Origin: a virus
Lineage: Duplodnaviria; Caudoviricetes
Length of the DNA stretch: 41,375 bases
IMG/VR virus record: IMGVR_UViG_3300043393_000053
Span: 1-41,375 of that record
Strand: one strand, 5' to 3'
Under the pieces are notes generated by a model that worked only from the letters and a program-made list of their open reading frames with translations, had not been told where the DNA came from and did not search any database. The translations under genes and the position numbers were made by a program. Below are positions 2,394 to 12,691 of this stretch, piece after piece; positions within the stretch are counted from its first letter, which is position 1; each line of letters starts with the position of its first letter.

Positions 2394-2419
2394 TAGGCGT
2401 ATTGCCTAGTTAGCCGGCT
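2394..2419 (+). other. Left junction of the array (attI/attG-like G|TTAGCC site)
   Basis: GTTAGCCGGCT (2409-2419) is the exact reverse complement of AGCCGGCTAAC at attC1 R''; no attC hairpin upstream; preceded by inverted repeat TAGGC-N5-GCCTA. Confidence 0.7.
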
Positions 2420-2858
2420 CGTAGTCCTGGACCACTTCGTCTCTCAGGGCGTCAATCGCATACTGCGGCACCACGTATCCAGCCGCGCGCAATTGCTCAA
2501 GCCGGTCGGCGCAGTCGGTCGGGCTTGCATCGTTGAACGAGTCGCCGTCGAAAGCGAGGCCAATCGGCCGCAGCGGGATCAAGTGCAGCGAGGCCATGTG
2601 CACGCGGTTGTGCCAGAAGGCCGCGAACCCAAACACGATGCGAGCGCCCAACTCGTGCCAACGGCTTGGGTACACCATGCGCCGCTCGGTGCGGTTGTAT
2701 GTGCCGCCAAAACTCGGCAGGCGCATTACCGGCACGTCAGGTATAGGCGGCACGCGGCGGCGGCTACCGGCAACGTGCGTTGCCCATCCGCCGCCAACAT
2801 CGGCATACACGTACACGTCGCAGCGCCAATTCATGCTGCTCCATCTGCAATAACTCAT
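2406..2858 (-). CDS. Cassette 1 hypothetical protein
   Basis: 150-aa ORF filling the cassette; stop codon lies just outside the crossover G. Confidence 0.8.
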   Translation of the reverse strand: MSYCRWSSMNWRCDVYVYADVGGGWATHVAGSRRRVPPIPDVPVMRLPSFGGTYNRTERRMVYPSRWHELGARIVFGFAAFWHNRVHMASLHLIPLRPIGLAFDGDSFNDASPTDCADRLEQLRAAGYVVPQYAIDALRDEVVQDYEPAN

Positions 2859-2892
2859 GCTCTCGCCCTTACCTTTGTCGCTTCCATCAGCC

Positions 2893-2946
2893 GGCTAACC
2901 CCGTTTTCGAGCGGACTGAGTACAGCCGCTCAAAACAACGTTAGCC
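2893..2946 (+). repeat. attC-like site 1 (54 bp)
   Basis: GGCTAAC...TTT(C)GAGCGG(A)CTG/CAGCCGCTCAAA...GTTAGCC; two extrahelical bases (G and T on the bottom strand). Confidence 0.92.
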
Positions 2947-2981
2947 AGACACCAAATACCTGCATGCCTGGCGCCGTAGAG

Positions 2982-3374
2982 TTAAGCCGTGTGGGTGCCT
3001 TCCACACCACGAGCCATACGCGCGCGAGTGCGGCGCTGCAAGGCGGCTTGCGCTCGCTCCATGCACGTCAGCGCTTCGGCGTTGTCGGCGCTGGCATAGG
3101 GTCCGGCTTGGAAGCCACGCATGCGGTCGCACAGAATCGCCAGCAGGGCCTCGTGCGTTACGCCGTTCACGCCCACCTCGTTGATCGGCCCGTTCTGAAA
3201 CAAGATCAGGCAGGTGTTGGGGTCTTGGTCGTCGGGGTCCGATGGGTTCGTCGTGTTGTCAAACCCGGAAATCAGGTATGCGTGGTTCGCGTTGCCGCTG
3301 CCGGGCTCATCCATCACGCGCACGGCCAGCGTGTCGTTTGCGGGGTTCACTTTGTGGTCGTCGAGGTATCGCAT
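2982..3374 (-). CDS. tad1: Cassette 2: Tad1-family anti-Thoeris/anti-CBASS nucleotide sponge
   Basis: PGSGNANHAY...FQNGP...GV..EALLAILCDRMRGFQAGPYAS.DNA.AL...RR...R..RGVEGT follows the recalled Tad1 sequence pattern over the full length. Confidence 0.85.
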   Translation of the reverse strand: MRYLDDHKVNPANDTLAVRVMDEPGSGNANHAYLISGFDNTTNPSDPDDQDPNTCLILFQNGPINEVGVNGVTHEALLAILCDRMRGFQAGPYASADNAEALTCMERAQAALQRRTRARMARGVEGTHTA

Positions 3375-3408
3375 CGCTATCCTTCTGTGTGCCAGCGTCA
3401 CGGGTGCT

Positions 3409-3504
3409 GGCTAACCCTTCCATCGAGCCGAAAACCCCGGCTTACGGGTGGTCCATCTGTCACGTCTGCACGGCCGGGTTTTCGGCTCATGTCAAACGTT
3501 AGCC
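3409..3504 (+). repeat. attC-like site 2 (96 bp)
   Basis: GGCTAAC-CCTTC-CAT(C)GAGCCGAAAACC...GGTTTTCGGCTCATG-TCAAAC-GTTAGCC. Confidence 0.92.
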
Positions 3505-3514
3505 AGACACAAAC

Positions 3515-3793
3515 TCACGGCGCGTTCCGCATGTCATGGCTCATCGCGGTGCTGCCGCAGCGCGAACAAGTTGTGCTCCATGCGCAGCCGTCTTCGCTCT
3601 CCCACGGTTCGCCGTCCCACTTGTGCTCGCACGGGCCGCCCGTGCCGCACGCGCAGTAGCACGCGAACGGCTTGGCTGTCGTGCGCAGGGTTTGCAATGG
3701 CACTCCCCACGCATCGGCCATCTTCTGCAAATGCTCCTGCACCTCCGCATTGCGGCGGGCGCGCAGGGCCGCGAAGTCGGGCGCTGCATCCAT
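3515..3793 (-). CDS. Cassette 3, second gene: Cys/His-rich putative zinc-binding protein
   Basis: CYCAC, CEH and CSRC motifs; starts 2 nt after the acb2 stop. Confidence 0.7.
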   Translation of the reverse strand: MDAAPDFAALRARRNAEVQEHLQKMADAWGVPLQTLRTTAKPFACYCACGTGGPCEHKWDGEPWESEDGCAWSTTCSRCGSTAMSHDMRNAP

Positions 3794-3795
3794 GC

Positions 3796-4053
3796 TCAAA
3801 AGGTGGTGGGCTGTGCAATGCCGCGAATCACGGCCATGAAGCCGCGTTGCAGGTCGGTCGAGCCAATGCTGATCCAGCGTTGGTCGAGCGAAAGGCCAGG
3901 TGCAGGCCCATCCGGCGAGCCGCCGACTGCGCGCAGCTTGGCGACGTAGGCGCCGCACTGCTCGGCCAGCGACTTGCCTTCGTTCATCAGCTCCACCTCG
4001 GCCTCGCTCAGTTGACGGTAACCTGTGATCTTCGGTTGAATCATCGTTTCCAT
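3796..4053 (-). CDS. acb2: Cassette 3: Acb2-family anti-CBASS cyclic-oligonucleotide sponge
   Basis: KITGYRQLSEAEVELMNEGK...RWISIGSTDLQRGFMAVIRGIAQPTTF follows the recalled Acb2 pattern (KIKGYRDLS..EI..MN..K...RWLAIG.TD.Q.G.MA.IRAIAQP..F). Confidence 0.9.
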   Translation of the reverse strand: METMIQPKITGYRQLSEAEVELMNEGKSLAEQCGAYVAKLRAVGGSPDGPAPGLSLDQRWISIGSTDLQRGFMAVIRGIAQPTTF

Positions 4054-4091
4054 GTCATTCCTTCCGGTTGTGCGCCAGCGTTCCGGGTGCT

Positions 4092-4186
4092 GGCTAACCC
4101 TTCCATCGAGCCGAAAACCCCGGCTTACGGGTGGTTCAAATCAACGCCTGAGCGGCCGGGTTTTCGGCTCATGTCAAACGTTATGC
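4092..4186 (+). repeat. attC-like site 3 (95 bp)
   Basis: Arms identical to site 2, different central loop; R' GTTATGC. Confidence 0.92.
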
Positions 4187-4357
4187 GCCTTGCTCGTCAT
4201 CGAAGATTGGGAGCCATTCGCGGCGCTTCACATCCCAATGCTGCGTAGCAAACATCGTCGCTAGCGAATAGAGCGGGTGGTGCGGCTCGCACACGACCCA
4301 TTCGCCGTCATCCTTTTGGTGCCGAACGGTGCCGGCTGCGTGTTCTTCGTTCTTCAA
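4181..4357 (-). CDS. Cassette 4, second gene: 58-aa hypothetical protein (not in ORF track)
   Basis: AGGAG RBS, TTG start overlapping the upstream TGA, stop TAA inside R' of attC3. Confidence 0.6.
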   Translation of the reverse strand: MKNEEHAAGTVRHQKDDGEWVVCEPHHPLYSLATMFATQHWDVKRREWLPIFDDEQGA

Positions 4358-5067
4358 GTTGCACTCCTAGCTATAGAAAGCAGCAGGTCGCGGAAAGGCT
4401 CCGGCGTGGCGTTCCTGATCGCAGTCTTGTTCTTCCCGCCCACCATCGCCACCACGCCGATGCGCCTGGCTTTCTCGTAGCCGTAGCGGTCGATCATCCA
4501 TTGCGGCAGGCGCTGCTCAGTCTTGCCCCACTTCAGGTTGGGCAAGTCTTCGCGCGCAATGCGGTTCGCGTACAACCATGTCGCCTTACCACTTGCGTGT
4601 CCGTAGTGGCCTTGGTACACACAGCACGTCCACCCGCCCAGGCCCGCCGACACCCAGCCGCCACTACGCGGGGGCTTCTCGATGCCATGTGCGTCCCACG
4701 CCTTGCTGTCGGCCGGGTGTTCCAGCACGCCACCGAACGCATCCACGCACGCAAGCGCCGCGCGGAAGCACCCGCCATCGTCGCCCAGCTTGTACTGGTG
4801 CGGCTTGCGCGTGCTGCCGTGCCAGAACCTGCCCCAACGCTGGCAGGGTGGGTGCGCCACCACAGGGTGCGGCCCCGCGTACTTCCTGGCGTCGCGCGCT
4901 TCGTCCCACGGCTCAACTCCTGGCACGCCCACATAGCAGCCCTTCGGCTCCACGTAGAGGGCCGCCACGGTTGCTCGCACATCCACCGGCCGCACAACCC
5001 CTCGGTCGAGCGGACAATGTCCGGCGTTCACCGCTGGCGCATCTGCAAAAAGGTCGTAGCCGGTCAT
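4354..5067 (-). CDS. Cassette 4: DNA cytosine-5 methyltransferase-like protein
   Basis: AHPPCQ (motif IV-like) and VLEHP (motif VI-like); motif I degenerate; start codon lies inside attC4. Confidence 0.6.
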   Translation of the reverse strand: MTGYDLFADAPAVNAGHCPLDRGVVRPVDVRATVAALYVEPKGCYVGVPGVEPWDEARDARKYAGPHPVVAHPPCQRWGRFWHGSTRKPHQYKLGDDGGCFRAALACVDAFGGVLEHPADSKAWDAHGIEKPPRSGGWVSAGLGGWTCCVYQGHYGHASGKATWLYANRIAREDLPNLKWGKTEQRLPQWMIDRYGYEKARRIGVVAMVGGKNKTAIRNATPEPFRDLLLSIARSAT

Positions 5068-5091
5068 TGCCTCTCACCTCAAACGTTAGGC
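4992..5091 (+). repeat. attC-like site 4 (100 bp)
   Basis: GCACAAC-CCCTC-GGT(C)GAGCGGACAATG...CATTGCCTCTCACC-TCAAAC-GTTAGGC. Confidence 0.88.
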
Positions 5092-5388
5092 CCCACGAGC
5101 AATACATGCCTCGCAAGAACAGAATGGTTTGAACCACTTTGTCTCCGTACTTGCTCGCTCCGCATTCTCTTCGCGCATCGCTATCTGACCGTCAATGAAG
5201 CCACGCCGAAATTCATGGTCAAGGGTGGATTGGTTATGAATCCGAAGCCTGTCAACTTCATCCAGTGCAGCAAGTAGCCCGTCGCAAATCGTGCGCTCAG
5301 GCATACCGTGGCTGTGAAGTGCAGCGCCTTCCTCTGCCAGTTCGCGCAGGTATTCGGCGCGCTCCGGCTCCAGGCCTAACCCTTCCAT
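5086..5388 (-). CDS. Cassette 5 hypothetical protein
   Basis: ORF starts within attC5 (ATG at 5388 or 5418) and stops at TAA in R' of attC4. Confidence 0.65.
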   Translation of the reverse strand: MEGLGLEPERAEYLRELAEEGAALHSHGMPERTICDGLLAALDEVDRLRIHNQSTLDHEFRRGFIDGQIAMREENAERASTETKWFKPFCSCEACIARGA

Positions 5389-5740
5389 CGAGCGGGACTG
5401 CCTTCGGCATCCCCTCATTTCGGACGTTAGGCGTCTTGCTGCGGATCATGGAGTCAACAAATGAAGTAACTTGACGCACGCATTCATCACTAAATTGCGT
5501 ACCTATGCGAATGTCGCCAACATGATCGCGCCATTTATCGCCAAAAAGTTGAAATGCCACACCCCTTTCGGCTTCAAAGCATCGCTTTAGGAGTTTGTAT
5601 TTCAAGACATTTTTGTCACGCCAGCCATGAAAAACAAAATTGACTTCTTTTGAGAAGTATTGCCCTTCATTCTCAAAAAATAGCCCGAACGATTGGCCGT
5701 CTCCACGTCTTGCAAGTTCCATGATGTTAAGAAGTTTCAT
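5297..5740 (-). CDS. Cassette 6 hypothetical protein (AT-rich; reads through attC5)
   Basis: ORF MKLLNIMELARR...; no stop before the crossover, so it continues PNV... into cassette 5. Confidence 0.65.
   Translation of the reverse strand: MKLLNIMELARRGDGQSFGLFFENEGQYFSKEVNFVFHGWRDKNVLKYKLLKRCFEAERGVAFQLFGDKWRDHVGDIRIGTQFSDECVRQVTSFVDSMIRSKTPNVRNEGMPKAVPLDGRVRPGAGARRIPARTGRGRRCTSQPRYA
5374..5432 (+). repeat. attC-like site 5 (59 bp)
   Basis: GCCTAAC-CCTTC-CAT(C)GAGCGGGACTGCC TTC GGCATCCCCTCATT-TCGGAC-GTTAGGC. Confidence 0.92.
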
Positions 5741-5766
5741 TCTTGGCCTTTTGTGTTTCGTCAGGC

Positions 5767-5823
5767 GCCTAACCTGCAATTCAAGCCGACGCCTGACGGC
5801 GCGGCTTAATTGCAACTTTAGGC
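5767..5823 (+). repeat. attC-like site 6 (57 bp), crossover G replaced by T
   Basis: GCCTAAC...AATT(C)AAGCCG(A)CGCC/GGCGCGGCTTAATT...TTTAGGC; arms closely resemble classical 59-base elements. Confidence 0.92.
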
Positions 5824-6273
5824 CGGGAGCGGCACCGTGGCGCCCGTGAAAGTGTCAATCAGCGGCTTGCCAGCAGCACGCACTTCGTCCACCGTCATGA
5901 ACTTGGCGCAGGCCCCTTCTGGCAAACCGTCATCCACCAGCAGGCCATAGCGCACGGTCTGCACTTCCAGCGTGGTGCTGCATCGGCAGCCCAGGCTCCA
6001 GCCCCAGTTCTGTTCGCCGCAGGCATCGCACTTCGTGCCCTGGCACACCATGCCAATTGCTTCGCCAGCACGGACGCGGCACTTCGCATTACCGAAGTCC
6101 CATCCTTGCACAGCCTGCGGCGGTTCTGTCGGGCGCGGCTCACCAGCCATTGCGGCTTCGGCGGCTTGCTCAAATACGTTTGCGGCGTCCTGCGCGGCCC
6201 GGCCTAACCCCTTGTTGCAGCCGAGCCCCAACGGCGGGATACTTGCGTTGTCAGGCTGTGAATCTGTAGTCAT
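5818..6273 (-). CDS. Cassette 7 Cys-rich hypothetical protein
   Basis: AGGAG RBS and ATG inside the attC7 loop; stop TAA in R' of attC6. Confidence 0.75.
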   Translation of the reverse strand: MTTDSQPDNASIPPLGLGCNKGLGRAAQDAANVFEQAAEAAMAGEPRPTEPPQAVQGWDFGNAKCRVRAGEAIGMVCQGTKCDACGEQNWGWSLGCRCSTTLEVQTVRYGLLVDDGLPEGACAKFMTVDEVRAAGKPLIDTFTGATVPLPA

Positions 6274-6321
6274 CTTTCTTCTCCTTGCGCCGTTGGTGCC
6301 GGCTGAACTCGAACGTTCTAC
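6202..6321 (+). repeat. attC-like site 7 (120 bp)
   Basis: GCCTAAC-CCCTT-GTT(G)CAGCCG...CCAACGGCG/CGCCGTTGG...CGGCTGAAC-TCGAAC-GTTCTAC. Confidence 0.88.
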
Positions 6322-6667
6322 GGCAATTCAAGCACTTCAGCCCAGCTCCCGCCTTGTTCCACTGCATCGGCCATTCGGTAGCGAGTCGGCGCATCGATGT
6401 CCTTCCACAGGCAACAGTCAGCGGCTTCGCGGTGAGCTGAATACTTCTCGGCACATACCGGGCATGCTGCCGAGTCGGAATCGGCCGCTTTCCCTTGGCA
6501 GCACTCTTCGGCCTCGGTTTCCTCGTCTTCGTCGAATCGTTCGCCACAGACAGGGCAGCCCAGTTGATGAGTTCTCTGGCACTCTTTCGCTTGCCGTCTG
6601 GCACACCAGCGTCTCGTGCTCTGGCGTTCGCAATGAGGCCGCTAAGGTTGAGCGGTGAAAGTTGCAT
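6318..6667 (-). pseudogene. Cassette 8: frameshifted Cys-rich (CPVC x2) protein
   Basis: N-terminal frame MQLSPLNL...ELINW; the shifted frame continues GCPVCGERFDEDEETEAEECC...CPVCAEKY...DCCLWKD...VLELP* and has no start of its own; one G appears missing at about 6559-6561. Confidence 0.65.
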
Positions 6668-6692
6668 GTTCTCTCCGTGCCTTCGTTGTGCC

Positions 6693-6778
6693 GTCGAACC
6701 AGTTAATCGAGCGGACCTCGGGCGGCAGGGCGCATCTGCACCGGTACTGCCTCGGCCCGCTCACCCTAGACGTTGGGC
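6693..6778 (+). repeat. attC-like site 8 (86 bp)
   Basis: GTCGAAC-CAGTT-AAT(C)GAGCGGACC...GGCCCGCTCACC-CTAGAC-GTTGGGC. Confidence 0.85.
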
Positions 6779-6788
6779 AGACGTGTTG

Positions 6789-7100
6789 TCACTTGCTCGC
6801 CATAGCGGCAGCAGCGCGAACGATGGCGTGTCGGGTGGCCTCGTTGGCGTCGTTGCCGAGCATGATCTCTTCCCACGCACCATCCCCCGCCGCGGTCACG
6901 TAGTCGGCACCGTTCCAGCGCAGTTCAATGCGGCATTTCACCGCCAGCCGCAGCGCGTCACCGTCGTCTGTCAGTGGATTCCACAACCTGTGGTCTCCAT
7001 CATCGGCAAAGAGCCAATGTGTGTTCGACGAACGTTTCCACTCGCCAATCTTGTGGCCCACAGCCTTCGCCGCAGCCTCAAGAAGTTCTTTGTCTGTCAT
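6789..7100 (-). CDS. Cassette 9: conserved phage protein, NinX/ABA-sandwich-like
   Basis: MTDKELLEAAAKA...WNPLTDDGDALRLAV...ATRHAIVRAAA pattern. Confidence 0.7.
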   Translation of the reverse strand: MTDKELLEAAAKAVGHKIGEWKRSSNTHWLFADDGDHRLWNPLTDDGDALRLAVKCRIELRWNGADYVTAAGDGAWEEIMLGNDANEATRHAIVRAAAAMASK

Positions 7101-7133
7101 TGTTTGACCCTCGTTCATCGAATCGGTAGCGCT

Positions 7134-7222
7134 GCCCAACCCTTCGCTCAGCCGGACCTCGGGCAGCGTGGCGCTTTTCGCCATTCGCCAAAGCCTCGGC
7201 CCGGCTAGCTCAAACGTTGTGC
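7134..7222 (+). repeat. attC-like site 9 (89 bp)
   Basis: GCCCAAC-CCTTC-GCT(C)AGCCGG(A)CC...GGCCCGGCTAGC-TCAAAC-GTTGTGC. Confidence 0.88.
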
Positions 7223-7235
7223 AGCTTGCGACCTG

Positions 7236-7382
7236 TCAGCATCCCGCACCGATCAACTCGGCGGCGAGTTTGCGACAGGCATCCTCCCAATATGAGGCGC
7301 GGCCCGCGTTGATGCTGCCGGCCCGTGCCCGCTCCAGCCAAAACATGCACTGGTACGTCAGGTGGTGCGCCTTTTTGCTCAT
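7236..7382 (-). CDS. Cassette 10, gene 3: 48-aa hypothetical protein
   Basis: ATGA-coupled to the upstream gene; GGAG RBS. Confidence 0.55.
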   Translation of the reverse strand: MSKKAHHLTYQCMFWLERARAGSINAGRASYWEDACRKLAAELIGAGC

Positions 7383-7552
7383 GGTTGTGGCTCCTTGATC
7401 TTGAGGATCGCGGCCTCGACCGCCTCGGTGCCCACGCGCGCCACCTTGGCCGCAACCTCGGGGTACGTCCGCATTTGCAGCCGTGCCGTGCGCCGCAAAT
7501 CGGGCGGCAGCGCGGGCCGCCCCATCCGCTTGGTCGTTAGGACGGTAGCCAT
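7379..7552 (-). CDS. Cassette 10, gene 2: 57-aa putative DNA-binding protein (ribbon-helix-helix-like; not in ORF track)
   Basis: MATVLTTKRMGRPALPPDLRRTARLQMRTYPEVAAKVARVGTEAVEAAILKIKEPQP; GRP followed by a strand-helix-helix pattern; TGATG coupling. Confidence 0.65.
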   Translation of the reverse strand: MATVLTTKRMGRPALPPDLRRTARLQMRTYPEVAAKVARVGTEAVEAAILKIKEPQP

Positions 7553-7737
7553 CACTCGGTTTCCACGACCTCAAAAGAGCCAATCGGCCCCATATCGCCG
7601 TCCGCAAAGAGTTCGGCCTCTTCGCGGCTCTGAAACGTGCAAGCCAACTCTGTGTCTGTCCAGCAGCGGTCCCCGGCCGGACTGGCAAACCAGAATCCAT
7701 TGTCTTCGGCCGACTTGATTTGGTACTTAGCGCTCAT
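7552..7737 (-). CDS. Cassette 10, gene 1: 61-aa acidic protein
   Basis: AGGAG RBS downstream of the internal promoter. Confidence 0.7.
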   Translation of the reverse strand: MSAKYQIKSAEDNGFWFASPAGDRCWTDTELACTFQSREEAELFADGDMGPIGSFEVVETE

Positions 7738-7781
7738 CTTGCTCTCCTGTTGCGGGCCGCACCTTGCTGCCCATGAGCATT

Positions 7782-7830
7782 AATGTACTCCGCAAATGTC
7801 GGTGCGTCAAACAGTTTATGTACTCCGCAA
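7782..7830 (-). promoter_or_regulatory. Sigma70-like promoter inside cassette 10 with a 13-bp direct repeat
   Basis: TTGACG-17-TACATT on the minus strand (7810-7782); ATGTACTCCGCAA at 7783-7795 and 7818-7830. Confidence 0.7.
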
Positions 7831-7859
7831 TTGTAAAGTTCAGCGTTTCGGAACCGGCT

Positions 7860-7917
7860 GCACAACTGGTTTATCGAGCGGACCGCTTTCAGCGGTCCGC
7901 TCATTGCCAATTTAGGC
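7860..7917 (+). repeat. attC-like site 10 (58 bp), crossover G replaced by T
   Basis: GCACAAC-TGGTT-TAT(C)GAGCGGACCGCT TTC AGCGGTCCGCTCATT-GCCAA-TTTAGGC. Confidence 0.88.
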
Positions 7918-7927
7918 CTCCAGAAAC

Positions 7928-8065
7928 TCACTTTTTGTTGCTGCCCGGGCGTTTGTAGCCCGTCGCATCACGGTGGCAATCCGCGATTTTCGGCTGTGAA
8001 ATCATGCGCGAATAGTCTGCGCGGCGGCGCTCCAAATTGCGCGCCAGTTTTTTGCTTCTCTTCAT
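7928..8065 (-). CDS. Cassette 11: 45-aa basic protein
   Basis: GAGG RBS; MKRSKKLARNLERRR... Confidence 0.6.
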   Translation of the reverse strand: MKRSKKLARNLERRRADYSRMISQPKIADCHRDATGYKRPGSNKK

Positions 8066-8089
8066 TTGCTTTCCTCTCTGTTCACCAAG

Positions 8090-8190
8090 GCCTAACCATT
8101 CGGTCGAGGCGAAATCCCACGGCAAGCGGCCGTGTTGCGCTTCGGTAAGGCCGCGCCGCCGTGGGCTTCGCCTCACCTCAAACGTTAGGG
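8090..8190 (+). repeat. attC-like site 11 (101 bp)
   Basis: GCCTAAC-CATTC-GGT(C)GAGGCGAA...CCCACGGC/GCCGTGGG...TTCGCCTCACC-TCAAAC-GTTAGGG. Confidence 0.9.
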
Positions 8191-8403
8191 CTCTTTCACG
8201 CATGCCATCGCTGCGTCGTATCGCGCCAGGTCGGCCTGCATCTGCGCCTTCGCAATCTTGATGATTTGCGAACTCGCTTTGTAGTAGTTCTTACTTGGTC
8301 CGCTCAGCAGTCCGCTTTCCAGCAGCGCGATCACGGCGCCCCAGGTGTTAAGGTTTGCGTTGGCAGTTGCGGCCTCTTTGGCTGCGGCTTCTTTGGTGCT
8401 CAT
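8185..8403 (-). CDS. Cassette 12 hypothetical helical protein
   Basis: 72-aa ORF, stop TAA in R' of attC11. Confidence 0.7.
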   Translation of the reverse strand: MSTKEAAAKEAATANANLNTWGAVIALLESGLLSGPSKNYYKASSQIIKIAKAQMQADLARYDAAMACVKEP

Positions 8404-8428
8404 ACATTCCCTCGGTTTTCAACCAGCG

Positions 8429-8529
8429 CCCTAACTCTTCGGTCGAGAGGACCCACCCCGGCGTCGCTGTTCGGTTCTTCTGTCATCGTTGTGCCCGCCG
8501 TGGCGGTCCTCTCACCTCAAACGTTCGGC
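8429..8529 (+). repeat. attC-like site 12 (101 bp)
   Basis: CCCTAAC-TCTTC-GGT(C)GAGAGGACC...GGTCCTCTCACC-TCAAAC-GTTCGGC. Confidence 0.9.
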
Positions 8530-8879
8530 CCCAATGCATCGCGCAAGCACTCCATGCGCTCTTGCATCATGCCGTCGTGTGCTTTCGGCAGCACGGTCCC
8601 GTCCCACGCCACCAGCGCACGCAGAGCGGCGTGGGGCAGATCGCGGCTGCGGAGGCTCTTGTATGCCCCGTCCAGCAGTTCGCGTAGGCGCTTGCACTCG
8701 GCCTCGGCATCCTGTTTCTGCTGCACCACATGCCCGAACGCTTCTTTCGCGCCTTCCTCGGCTAACTTGAGCGCCTCGATCTCGTCGCACAAAGCCGAGA
8801 CTTCGCGCATGCGAATCGCCGGCCACCCGTCAGGAGTGTGGTCAACCTCAAAGACGCGCATCTGCTGTACCAAATCCAT
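8517..8879 (-). CDS. Cassette 13 coiled-coil hypothetical protein
   Basis: GGAG RBS; ends PNV* using a stop supplied by attC12. Confidence 0.7.
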   Translation of the reverse strand: MDLVQQMRVFEVDHTPDGWPAIRMREVSALCDEIEALKLAEEGAKEAFGHVVQQKQDAEAECKRLRELLDGAYKSLRSRDLPHAALRALVAWDGTVLPKAHDGMMQERMECLRDALGPNV

Positions 8880-8898
8880 TCTGTCGCTCCGTGTTGAG

Positions 8899-8986
8899 GT
8901 CGAACCAGTTAATCGAGCGGACCGCCACCGGCAGTCAGCGTTTCGTGTCGGTTTGAGCAGCGGCCCGCTCATTGCCAACGTTAGGG
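8899..8986 (+). repeat. attC-like site 13 (88 bp)
   Basis: GTCGAAC-CAGTT-AAT(C)GAGCGG(A)CCGC...GCGGCCCGCTCATT-GCCAAC-GTTAGGG. Confidence 0.9.
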
Positions 8987-8999
8987 CGACACAAAATGC

Positions 9000-9497
9000 C
9001 TACGCGATCTGCACCCGAGCAATTGCCACCAGCCGAGGATCGGCCCGCGTCAAAACGTCGAGCAACAGGCGCTTCTCTTCGAGGTACATGACCGCGAACT
9101 TCGGGTCGTGCAGAACGATGCCGGCGGTGTTGCTTATGATGTCGGCGACTTTGATGGTTTGCACCCAGGCCCACGCCTTTGAAAGCCGTTCACGCGAAGC
9201 GGCCTTTCGCTCGGCGCGGTTGCCCGCCTCCATGTCGCTCAACTGCTCCACCGCATATGCCACGACGCCGCCAAACTTGGCTTCGAGCGTGTCCAGTGTC
9301 ACGACCTGATCTTCCGTGCAATCGTGTAGCCAGCACACTTGCGCCATCACGTCGTAACACAGTTGCTCGGGGCAGGCAGTCATGGCAATGCCAACCACTT
9401 CGGCCAGGTGGTCGGTATACGGGTTGCCCGTGTACTTGCGCCGCTAGTCCTTGTGCACCTCGCGGGCGAACATCATTGCTTCAAATGCATTCATCAT
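9000..9497 (-). pseudogene. Cassette 14: HD-domain protein (RelA/SpoT hydrolase, Mesh1-like) with an in-frame TAG
   Basis: FAREVHKD*RRKYTGNPYTDH...WLHDCTED...IKVADIISN; amber codon at 9444-9446 where the family has Q. Confidence 0.8.
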
Positions 9498-9517
9498 TTA
9501 GGTTCTCCACCAGTGCG

Positions 9518-9537
9518 CCCTAACCCTTCCATCGAGG
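9518..9537 (+). repeat. Truncated attC-like site 14 (R'' and L'' only)
   Basis: CCCTAAC-CCTTC-CATCGAG matches the start of sites 2, 3 and 5; no correctly spaced L'/R' follows. Confidence 0.7.
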
Positions 9538-9611
9538 TCAGGACGCCCAACTGCGTGCCGCTTTCGTTCATTGGATTTGCAGCGATTTGTGCTGTTCAAT
9601 GTGGGTACGGC

Positions 9612-10490
9612 TCATGGCTCAACCGGCGTTGCTTGCGGAGCGCTCATAGCGGCCATTGCTGCATCGCGCTTTGCAATTTCATCGGCGGTTTTCTTGAGCG
9701 ATGTTCGGAGAGCGCTGTGCGGCTTCAGGATCGACCAGAGGGCGAGCTTTTCATCGTTGTCCTCTAAACTTGCCTCCTCAAACGCACCGACATCGTCACC
9801 CTCGTTGAACTTTTGCAAAGCAGCACGCGCCGCATTCCGAACAACTATTGCTCGTGCGGGCGTCAGGCCAAAATTCTTCGGCTGATTCAACGGGTCATGG
9901 TCATCAATGTCGTTGATCGCCTTGCCTTCCATCTCTTCGGCGGTGTATTGAGCTGCGATTTCCGGGAATGCACTGCGCAGGGCCTGGGCAGACGCGCACT
10001 TTGCAATCTGGCCTTTTGGGCGCTTTGTCCACATCGCATTGGGAGCGATAGACTTCTCTTTCCCACCCTTCACAGCGTAGTTCTCAGTCCAATATTCTTT
10101 GGCCGTGAAGTCGCAGATTTCACCAGATGCGAGCCGGCGCTTTGCAGTGACGCGGCACCACTCGGGATAGGTGATTTCCTGCCCGCCGATAACCGTAACC
10201 ACGTCGGGACCGAACTCGGGTTCCGTGATCCCGGCGAACTGTTGCGAGCGCGACGCCTGGATGCGGTACAGGTTGATGCCTGGCATGATGACATCGCGCA
10301 TCGATCCTGAATTGCGGTCCCACATGGGCACGATGTGCACCGGCTTTTGCATCGGGTCAAGCCCGGCTGCGCGGCAGTACTCAATCACCAAGCCGATGGA
10401 TTGCAGCGATGCGCCGGGGTACAGCGATGTTTGAAGTACGGCCAGCATGGTTTCGTTGTTCGGCTGGAGTTGATGCACTACGGCGTTCAT
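9612..10490 (-). CDS. bet: Bet/RecT-family single-strand annealing recombinase
   Basis: GLDPMQKPVHIVPM...PGINLYRIQA...EPEFGP...MWTKRPKGQIAKCASAQALRSAFPE. Confidence 0.88.
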   Translation of the reverse strand: MNAVVHQLQPNNETMLAVLQTSLYPGASLQSIGLVIEYCRAAGLDPMQKPVHIVPMWDRNSGSMRDVIMPGINLYRIQASRSQQFAGITEPEFGPDVVTVIGGQEITYPEWCRVTAKRRLASGEICDFTAKEYWTENYAVKGGKEKSIAPNAMWTKRPKGQIAKCASAQALRSAFPEIAAQYTAEEMEGKAINDIDDHDPLNQPKNFGLTPARAIVVRNAARAALQKFNEGDDVGAFEEASLEDNDEKLALWSILKPHSALRTSLKKTADEIAKRDAAMAAMSAPQATPVEP

Positions 10491-11817: not shown

Positions 11818-12062
11818 CACAGCCCCCCGAAATCTGTCATTGCGGCGCCAGTGAATCGCCGTGACCGGTGCGAGCCATGGGCGCGGGCCAACAGCGTTTT
11901 GGCTGCATCAACTTGACGCTGGCCGAAATTGGCGGCGTTCTCGCGATCGGCGACTTGCTGCGCCAGGTGTTCGGCATGGCGGGCACGGCTCAGCGCAAGC
12001 ATGTCGCGGTTTGCCTGTTGAATTTCATGAAGTTGCGAAGGCGTGAGGCTGGTGTAATTCAC
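11817..12062 (-). CDS. First gene of the leftward early operon, hypothetical
   Basis: GGAG RBS, GTG start downstream of the PL-like promoter. Confidence 0.65.
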   Translation of the reverse strand: MNYTSLTPSQLHEIQQANRDMLALSRARHAEHLAQQVADRENAANFGQRQVDAAKTLLARAHGSHRSRRFTGAAMTDFGGL

Positions 12063-12102
12063 TTTAGCTCCAGGGCGCCGAGACGTTCAGCGCATGGAAG
12101 GA

Positions 12103-12131
12103 ACTATAGGCATTGCCGATTGCATTGTCAA
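12103..12131 (-). promoter_or_regulatory. PL-like sigma70 promoter
   Basis: TTGACA-17-TATAGT. Confidence 0.85.
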
Positions 12132-12208
12132 CGGCATTGCCTATTATATTTTCGACTGGCAGCACAAATAATTAGCAGTGCGCTTGCGGTAAGCATCGGC
12201 AATGCCTA
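12107..12208. promoter_or_regulatory. Three 13-bp palindromic operators
   Basis: TAGGCATTGCCGA (12107-12119), ACGGCATTGCCTA (12131-12143), TCGGCAATGCCTA (12196-12208), overlapping both promoters. Confidence 0.85.
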
Positions 12209-12212
12209 TCAT
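12184..12212 (+). promoter_or_regulatory. PR-like sigma70 promoter (probably a leaderless cro mRNA)
   Basis: TTGCGG-17-TATCAT with ATG 7 nt downstream. Confidence 0.7.
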
Positions 12213-12219
12213 GTCGAGT

Positions 12220-12477
12220 ATGAACCCGATCACTACCGCGGCATCGATCCTTGGCAGCCAGGAATTGCTGGCGCGCTGCCTGGGAGTCAAGCAGCCAACC
12301 ATCAGCGAGTGGGCGCGCCAAGAGCGCCCGATCCCAATTGAGCGGTGCGTCGACATTGAGCGAGCGACCGGGAGGAAGGTCATGCGCTGGCACTTGCGTC
12401 CCAATGACTGGCATCGCATCTGGCCGGAGCTGGTCGGCACCGAAGATGCTCCGAAGGTCGAAGAGAAGGCGGTGTGA
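12220..12477 (+). CDS. cro: Cro/YdaS-like HTH regulator
   Basis: GSQELLARCLGVKQPTISEW...IERATG..V....LRP.DW..IWPEL. Confidence 0.85.
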   Translation: MNPITTAASILGSQELLARCLGVKQPTISEWARQERPIPIERCVDIERATGRKVMRWHLRPNDWHRIWPELVGTEDAPKVEEKAV

Positions 12478-12478
12478 C

Positions 12479-12691
12479 GTGCCCCAACTCACAGCGCCCC
12501 GATACAAGCAGCGCCGGCTGCAACGCGAGCGCGAAGCCTTCCGCGCAACAGCCGAGTACGCCGCGCTGCGTGTGAGGTTTGCCGAGACGTTGGTGCGTGC
12601 CATGCCGTCGAGCATCGCCGCCGCTTGGCCCGATTCCTACCCCCAAGGGGGCGAGTGCGCCCCCCATGAATCGCAGGGGGTGGCGGCTTGA
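12479..12691 (+). CDS. Hypothetical protein
   Basis: Fills the gap between cro and the next gene. Confidence 0.5.
   Translation: MPQLTAPRYKQRRLQREREAFRATAEYAALRVRFAETLVRAMPSSIAAAWPDSYPQGGECAPHESQGVAA

Follow-up and report, generated by a model that had tools for sequence, protein, structure and literature searches.

Several phage proteins are known to act as sponges for the nucleotide signals of bacterial immunity, among them Acb2, Acb4, Tad1, Tad2 and Sequestin. The Acb2 family is large; the Hadary study counted 4,204 homologues, some with other specificities (PMC12393519). In PaMx33 Acb2 the ligand residues are Y11, K26, R67 and T74 (PMC10312549). Such residues do not guarantee binding, as T4 Acb2 with the change D61R still failed (PMC10312549). 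Acb2 is active alone in published assays (PMC10312549, PMC12393519), and known sponges often occur as fusions (Tal et al.). Sponges can also set off a response. Panoptes fires when a sponge removes its decoy nucleotide, and it has been reported to be triggered by Acb2, Tad1, Tad2 and Acb4 (PMC13712596). Genes next to sponges may have activities of their own. For example, the genes beside acb4-sequestin in phage Ab09 (the Bes1/Bes2 hotspot) are themselves anti-signalling (10.64898/2026.06.04.730250). Clusters of attC sites lacking an integrase (CALINs) are known in phage genomes, and attC sites of this kind have been recombined by IntI1 (Qi et al. 2023, PMC9892861).

The window analysed here is the whole stretch of 41,375 bp, a complete phage record with direct terminal repeats. 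Like the described phage CALINs, it holds an attC cluster without an integrase; unlike them, its cassettes, about 14 in number, have ORFs that run against their attC and carry immune-signal sponges, neither of which is described in the available part of that report (PMC9892861). As in the Ab09 hotspot, an uncharacterised gene, here termed ORF2, lies directly beside a sponge gene (acb2), but ORF2 is unrelated to gp61 (Bes2) and gp58, the two proteins compared (hhalign probability 0.0 and 0.1). It resembles Sequestin, Lockin, Acb5, Acb4, Tad1, Tad2 and TadIV-1 in being a phage accessory protein of small size (<100 aa) and in occurring among such genes. It differs from them in its predicted helix plus zinc domain, in matching no Pfam sponge model or PDB entry, and in that no fusion was found. 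The Acb2 is of a known kind; what looks new is the inverted sponge cassette with a sponge-companion gene.

The inverted cassette array

The array lies with lysis genes on one side and a RecT-like gene on the other. Its features are as follows.

2410..9530, + strand: CALIN-type array, about 14 attC-bounded cassettes and no integrase
2409..2415, + strand: left array junction, with a GTTAGCC core complementary to R'' of the attC at 2893
2893, 3409, 4092, 4992, 5767, 6202, 7134, 7860, 8090, 8429, 8899: attC sites found by script
5373, 6693, 9518: attC sites read by eye
12103..12131, − strand: strong sigma70-like leftward promoter, 11/12 matches (consensus match only)
7782..7810, − strand: sigma70-like promoter within a cassette, flanked by two 20-nt repeats (consensus match only)

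Nine sites were found by the script in 2801-9700, compared with a mean of 0.14 and a maximum of 1 in 100 Markov controls; two further sites came from the script with relaxed settings, and three were added by eye. No integron integrase was detected in the complete genome with the TIGR02249 profile or by tblastn with an IntI query. The genome thus has no intI, and no attI was found in it, the site at 2409 being just a core site. In integrons the ORF of a cassette is usually co-oriented with its attC, and the relative orientation is not needed for recombination. All attC top strands of this array are on the + strand and all cassette ORFs on the − strand; the ORFs of the acb2-ORF2 cassette likewise run against their attC, which is not the usual arrangement. 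In 36 related loci with at least three sites, some of them duplicates, the anchor gene runs against 203 of 204 attC. Joints that contigs show between attC sites were set aside, the sides being short and probably from other attC-bearing DNA.

Leftward promoters are predicted at 12131, 10903 and 7810 by consensus only (8 sites, with 2.8 expected). Given their direction, the cassette genes would be read from the right, with the Tad1 and Acb2 cassettes the most distal. The promoter at 12103..12131 would serve both the early region and the cassette ORFs; the one at 7782..7810 is the nearest predicted promoter aimed at acb2 and is 3.7 kb away. Because the cassette ORFs are inverted, the 'entry' (left) end of the array is the end farthest from these promoters. 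The first-pass annotation had placed acb2 close to an attI-like end where new cassettes would enter. Its cassette is indeed the third from the left junction; the rest of that proposal found no support, as neither attI nor IntI was found, the rank of the cassette varies between arrays, and its position is promoter-distal.

Other parts of the array and its surroundings have features of their own. The cassette at 7218-7860 contains a sigma70-like promoter of its own, flanked by two 20-nt repeats, and ORFs of 61, 58 and 48 aa come next; the 58-aa ORF looks by eye like a ribbon-helix-helix repressor and has no Pfam match. In two attC sites (5817 and 7911) the crossover is TTT, not GTT, and this may fix those cassettes in place. 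The cassette at 9000-9497 encodes an HD-domain phosphohydrolase, a possible nucleotide-degrading anti-defence gene, with its ATG at 9497 and an in-frame TAG near 9446 by which it is apparently interrupted. At 12060-12480, read by eye, there are divergent early promoters and a Cro-like ORF with no obvious repressor gene between, a layout suggesting that this is a lytic phage derived from a temperate one.

Some relatives carry an integrase. A phage-like contig of 38 kb (L036, JAJYXG010000126.1, the same as L152) has a complete integron at 4060-7375. Its IntI, at 6335-7375, scores 440 bits with TIGR02249 (cut-off 265), an attI-like junction is found just before the IntI start, and four attC are antisense. 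The first cassette contains an unnamed 80-aa gene and ORF2. This IntI points the same way as the cassette ORFs, and a separate phage integrase lies convergent to it. IntI-like fragments have also been detected at the same end of inverted arrays in L035 (1555-2013) and L064 (5403-5717); L035 runs on into a tRNA-like stretch.

The acb2-ORF2 cassette and its two proteins

The cassette and its immediate surroundings are made up of the following.

3499..4180, + strand: integron-type cassette of 682 bp, from one G|TT crossover to the next, with two genes running antisense to its attC
4092..4186, + strand: attC of the acb2-ORF2 cassette
3409..3504, + strand: attC of the Tad1 cassette, which supplies the left crossover
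3796..4053, − strand: acb2, 85 aa, short-loop form
3515..3793, − strand: ORF2, 92 aa, N-terminal helix (7-29) and Cys/His domain
4059..4065, − strand: GGAAGGA, likely the ribosome-binding site, 5 nt ahead of the acb2 start
2982..3374, − strand: sponge gene of the adjacent cassette, tad1-like, 130 aa

Both attC sites show the R and L boxes and the extra base, and their bottom strands fold with z scores of -5.0 (3409 site) and -4.2 (4092 site). Past the left crossover, the first nine bases complement the R'' box of the cassette itself (9/9). The acb2-ORF2 unit is found with other neighbours in L003, L005, L006, L008, L128 and L129, and the downstream attC and neighbours differ around it in L003, L005, L006, L008 and L035. 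L128, with 12 attC, has nothing in common with the array studied here except this cassette. Structure of the attC, complementarity of the core and movement as a unit thus all mark the pair as a cassette, as the first pass had supposed in stating that the two genes travel together. The attC and flank of the Tad1 and Acb2 cassettes (3386-3501 and 4069-4183) are 94% identical over 70 nt; the near-identity extends through about 25 nt of upstream flank, as if both were built on one chassis. The Tad1 assigned to the neighbouring cassette was recognised again as a Tad1 relative (E 4e-12 to 6e-13). An acb2-ORF2 cassette also occurs in the genome of a cultured isolate, Aromatoleum anaerobium LuFRes1 (L038:5673-6300).

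The 85-aa protein is very probably an Acb2. It scores 51.5 bits with Pfam PF24729 (cut-off 27) and matches PaMx33 Acb2 (PDB 8h2j) with E 3e-11. The predicted fold is a two-helix hairpin (helices 17-45 and 58-80, pLDDT 83), for which Foldseek ranks Acb2 in the first six rows (E 2e-4 to 1e-3, TM 0.59-0.66) and T4 Vs.4 in the next three. The motifs from which the first pass had named this protein are therefore at the right place, and profile and fold agree with the name. Like PaMx33 Acb2 (8H2J/8H2X; PF24729) and T4 Vs.4 (7UQ2), it combines a helical hairpin with both motif blocks. The four ligand residues are kept as Y12, K27, R59 and T66 (PaMx33 Y11, K26, R67 and T74), and the equivalents of L14, I71 and P90 are retained as well. 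Thus the cyclic dinucleotide pocket (Y11, K26) is retained as Y12 and K27; in the cyclic trinucleotide pocket R59, T66 and I63 (I71) are kept and A70 is replaced by S62. Unlike PaMx33 Acb2, the protein has a shorter first helix and a Gly/Pro loop, and it is encoded in an attC cassette beside a companion gene. The ligand residues are kept in 50-51 of the 52 Acb2s that adjoin ORF2. A 74-aa relative with the same motifs, Acb2_26 (Table S2 of Hadary, PMC12393519), blocked both CBASS systems but not type I Thoeris. Judged by its sequence, the Acb2 of this phage is an ordinary new member of a known family, and since some homologues bind other signals, the ligands given for it here are predicted ones.

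ORF2 begins 2 nt past the acb2 stop (3515-3793, − strand, as first annotated), and translation of the two genes is likely to be coupled. Overlapping frames of 147 and 94 aa were rejected because the first codon of the homologues is the ATG that follows the acb2 stop. ORF2 contains 7 Cys and 3 His. In 99/99 non-redundant relatives C45, C47, C49, C55, E56, H57, G53 and G61 are invariant; C76 is conserved in 98/98, C79 in 97/98 and H86 in 95/96. Thus almost no variation is seen in six Cys and two His, in keeping with the zinc-binding role first suggested for this ORF, or in R11, R14, R78 and R89. The conserved Cys/His ligand set makes zinc binding likely, with two zinc sites predicted. There are 183 homologues of similar length and 286 representatives at 50% clustering, and dN/dS is 0.13-0.28 in 10/11 pairs, one pair being saturated. 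ORF2 is a real gene under purifying selection, and the doubt attached to it at first, that it might not be conserved, falls away.

ORF2 is not named by Pfam, PHROGs (0/70 alignment members as well), NCBIfam or PDB sequences, and these searches with Pfam, PHROGs and NCBIfam gave no HTH, RHH or other regulator match. It has no tblastn match in 50,697 INPHARED phage records, and its clusters in the Atlas are unnamed and mostly viral. No sequence match to Acb2, Tad1, Tad2, Acb4 or Sequestin was found with the Pfam sponge models and PDB chains. The predicted structure (pLDDT 90) consists of helix 7-29 and the Cys/His domain. Foldseek against PDB and BFVD gave no match at E 0.001, and a VIA search gave none that was significant. 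The best Z was 3.8, with rows covering mainly residues 1-61; such a lack of fold match does not show a new fold. The Cys/His domain is also found alone or appended to unrelated phage domains or protein ends. For example, it is fused to DUF4031 in P0127, and in P0195 to an N-terminal domain that has no Pfam match and that, from its motif, we take by eye to be SLOG-like. No ORF2-sponge fusion was present among 271 homologues; the search took in 4 longer homologues (7,996 candidates scored) and 53 longer representatives, none with a sponge domain. In the available supplements of Tal et al., whose longer cells are cut, a search for the ORF2 motifs gave nothing, a weak absence. ORF2, sponge cassettes in phage integron arrays and the term 'anti-Panoptes' were not found in the literature covered; subscription papers and supplements outside it may hold them.

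Sponge neighbours of ORF2 and what they suggest

ORF2 was examined at 129 loci (33 viral, 16 from genomes, and the best 80 of 123 from metagenomes, a choice that leans the set to close relatives). With these best 80 included, a known sponge directly adjoins ORF2 in 61/129 loci and none stands beside it in 68/129, where most of the distant relatives belong. By family the 61 are 52 Acb2, 7 Acb4, 1 Tad1 and 1 Sequestin. The 52 Acb2, the Tad1, the Sequestin and 1 Acb4 are upstream of ORF2, and 6 Acb4 are downstream. One more of the 129 loci (best 80 of 123 metagenome loci included) has a Tad1 within 3 kb, non-adjacent, and two loci with an Acb2 cut at the contig edge were left uncounted. The same set, again with the best 80 of 123, has the sponge link in 31/37 cassette loci and 30/92 loci without attC. 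These loci are not independent, and include duplicate contigs and one spreading cassette. The Acb4 (PF13876) and Sequestin (PF21825) neighbours were confirmed by Pfam, with the mapping of Pfam to sponge names taken from Tal et al.; the Tad1 neighbour was called by tblastn and a below-cut-off Pfam match. A 'LEAKDCAVR' family upstream of ORF2 in L032 and L047 was not counted as a sponge, because it was screened by Tal et al. and was negative on the systems for which a result is given.

Control loci, built on three other cassette genes of the window, had an adjacent sponge in 0/150 (0/80, 0/68 and 0/2), with three sponges nearby. The sponge profiles for this comparison were seeded from the surveyed loci themselves; a Pfam re-check covered the first control set and found no sponge in 135 of its 146 neighbours (11 duplicates left out). 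A second inhibitor, one of the two roles offered for ORF2 at the outset, thus has the support of gene neighbourhood, and more of it than the sequence by itself could offer. The difference holds after clustering. At 80%, sponge-adjacent clusters are 12/53 against 0/106 controls (nominal p 7e-7), or 6/53 for non-Acb2 sponges alone (nominal p 1e-3); at 70% they are 5/34 against 0/81 (nominal p 0.002), or 3/34 without Acb2 (nominal p 0.024), all p-values being nominal because the clusters are related. Cassette intervals with ORF2 hold a sponge in 8/8 cases and other intervals in 0/100.

Sponges can be exchanged around ORF2. L149 and L162 have common flanks and near-identical ORF2, with Acb4 in one and Sequestin in the other swapped start-to-stop. 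The ORF2 matches of L037 and L158 are identical and their upstream genes differ. A tree was made of 94 ORF2 rows over 92 columns, with one long-branch row and short matches taken out and no label on 5 rows that had no room upstream. On it, adjacency to a sponge changes 11 times, or 16 times by family, with low support; in the case of Acb2 adjacency the starred branches require no more than 2 changes. Genes of 80-96 aa with no Pfam name occupy the slot before ORF2, elsewhere filled by sponges, at L011:2600-2851, L037:30-320, L036:5756-5998 and L151:4756-5004, and are candidates for anti-signalling.

From the Acb2 side the association looks different. Among the best 80 of 124 Acb2 loci, ORF2 is present in 7 and absent from 73, and the remaining loci have some 37 other neighbour groups. 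A co-occurrence survey is therefore strong when started from ORF2 and weak when started from Acb2. One of the other companions is a conserved gene with a helical product of 62 aa, located 7 nt downstream of acb2 (L055, L062, L064, L065 and L077; e.g., L062:6287-6475), with several examples in attC cassettes and no Pfam match. Genes for Tad2, Sequestin or a Tad2-Sequestin fusion are located at or near acb2 in L058, L083, L100, L103, L113, L119 and L125, showing tight sponge clustering.

Several explanations can be given for these neighbourhoods. That ORF2 is a binding partner specific to Acb2, the other role first proposed for it, is very improbable. Most sponge adjacencies are to Acb2 and always with Acb2 directly upstream (52/61, best 80 of 123 metagenome loci included), and pairs persist down to an ORF2 identity of about 57% (L023). 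However, few Acb2 loci have ORF2, Acb2 works alone in published assays, other Acb2 cassettes contain the different 62-aa gene, and Tad1, Acb4 or Sequestin, the last two structurally different sponges at L149/L162, can take the place of Acb2. ORF2 might instead serve sponges in general, tuning the expression, stability or turnover of whichever one is in its operon, much like an Aca protein. Spacings of -1 to 2 nt behind members of four sponge families indicate tight coupling, and a small predicted zinc protein with conserved arginines would suit the role; the lack of any regulator match and the occurrence of ORF2 both before and after sponges make it improbable. A role in shielding sponge-carrying phages from decoy-sensing systems such as Panoptes is slightly more improbable still. 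It would explain the pairing with several different sponges, of which Acb2, Acb4 and Tad1, like Tad2, are Panoptes triggers, but Sequestin is not reported as one in the available part of that work (PMC13712596), and many ORF2 loci are sponge-less.

The main rival, which we consider unlikely and yet the most serious of the four, is that ORF2 has an unrelated phage function and was captured once beside acb2; selection for the sponge then spread the pair, and other sponges were swapped in via shared flanks. The loci with no known sponge neighbour (68/129, best 80 of 123 metagenome loci included) would be expected, the common flanks of sponge cassettes would favour swaps, and one main clade has many of the Acb2 pairings, which may still go back to a single origin. 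Among the 271 homologues, moreover, ORF2 is not fused to a sponge, although known sponges often fuse. That its Cys/His domain occurs in the manner of generic modules counts against the reading preferred below. Slot swapping, however, fails to explain the Acb4 genes downstream of ORF2 in 6 loci without attC, which represent 4 changes on the tree, and a chance rider fits poorly with the absence of adjacent sponges from the controls and with purifying selection on ORF2 within pairs.

The reading preferred here, tentatively and at a little less than even confidence, is that ORF2 may be an independent second inhibitor of nucleotide-signalling immunity and not an Acb2 subunit. The Bes1/Bes2 precedent, where sponge-adjacent genes have a separate anti-signalling activity, lends support to it. 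The region would then be a mobile anti-signalling module, with two genes in one attC-bounded phage cassette, presumably read as one message from leftward early promoters. Conserved residues and the tested short-form relative suggest that Acb2 would form the usual hexamer and bind cGAMP/cUA and cA3, so as to sequester the cyclic di- and trinucleotides of CBASS. ORF2 would cover signals or steps missed by the neighbouring sponge. It might bind a signal nucleotide in a small homo-oligomer via R11, R14, R78, H86 and R89, or it might bind a host immune protein, as the non-sponge Bes proteins do; the two are favoured about evenly. The cassette would be moved in trans by the integron integrase of a host or co-infecting element, acting on the folded attC bottom strand.

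Implications for phage counter-defence

An Acb2 alone would be one of thousands, and the lead here is its companion gene. ORF2 is a possible entry to a new anti-signalling family, and the slot before it lists further candidates by position. A bolder proposal is rather doubtful as a whole: ORF2 would found a new phage counter-defence family that travels with whichever sponge is present, either as a zinc-scaffold signalling inhibitor or as the first antidote to Panoptes-type guards; sponge-plus-companion modules would be traded in the form of inverted integron cassettes, of which some bring an integron integrase of their own; and the slot genes of L011, L036, L037 and L151 would be more undiscovered anti-signalling genes. 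If it is true that ORF2 blunts Panoptes-type guards, this would explain how phages can carry sponges by which such guards are triggered. The format of the cassettes suggests that phages shuffle counter-defence genes by the recombination system that bacteria use for defence genes.
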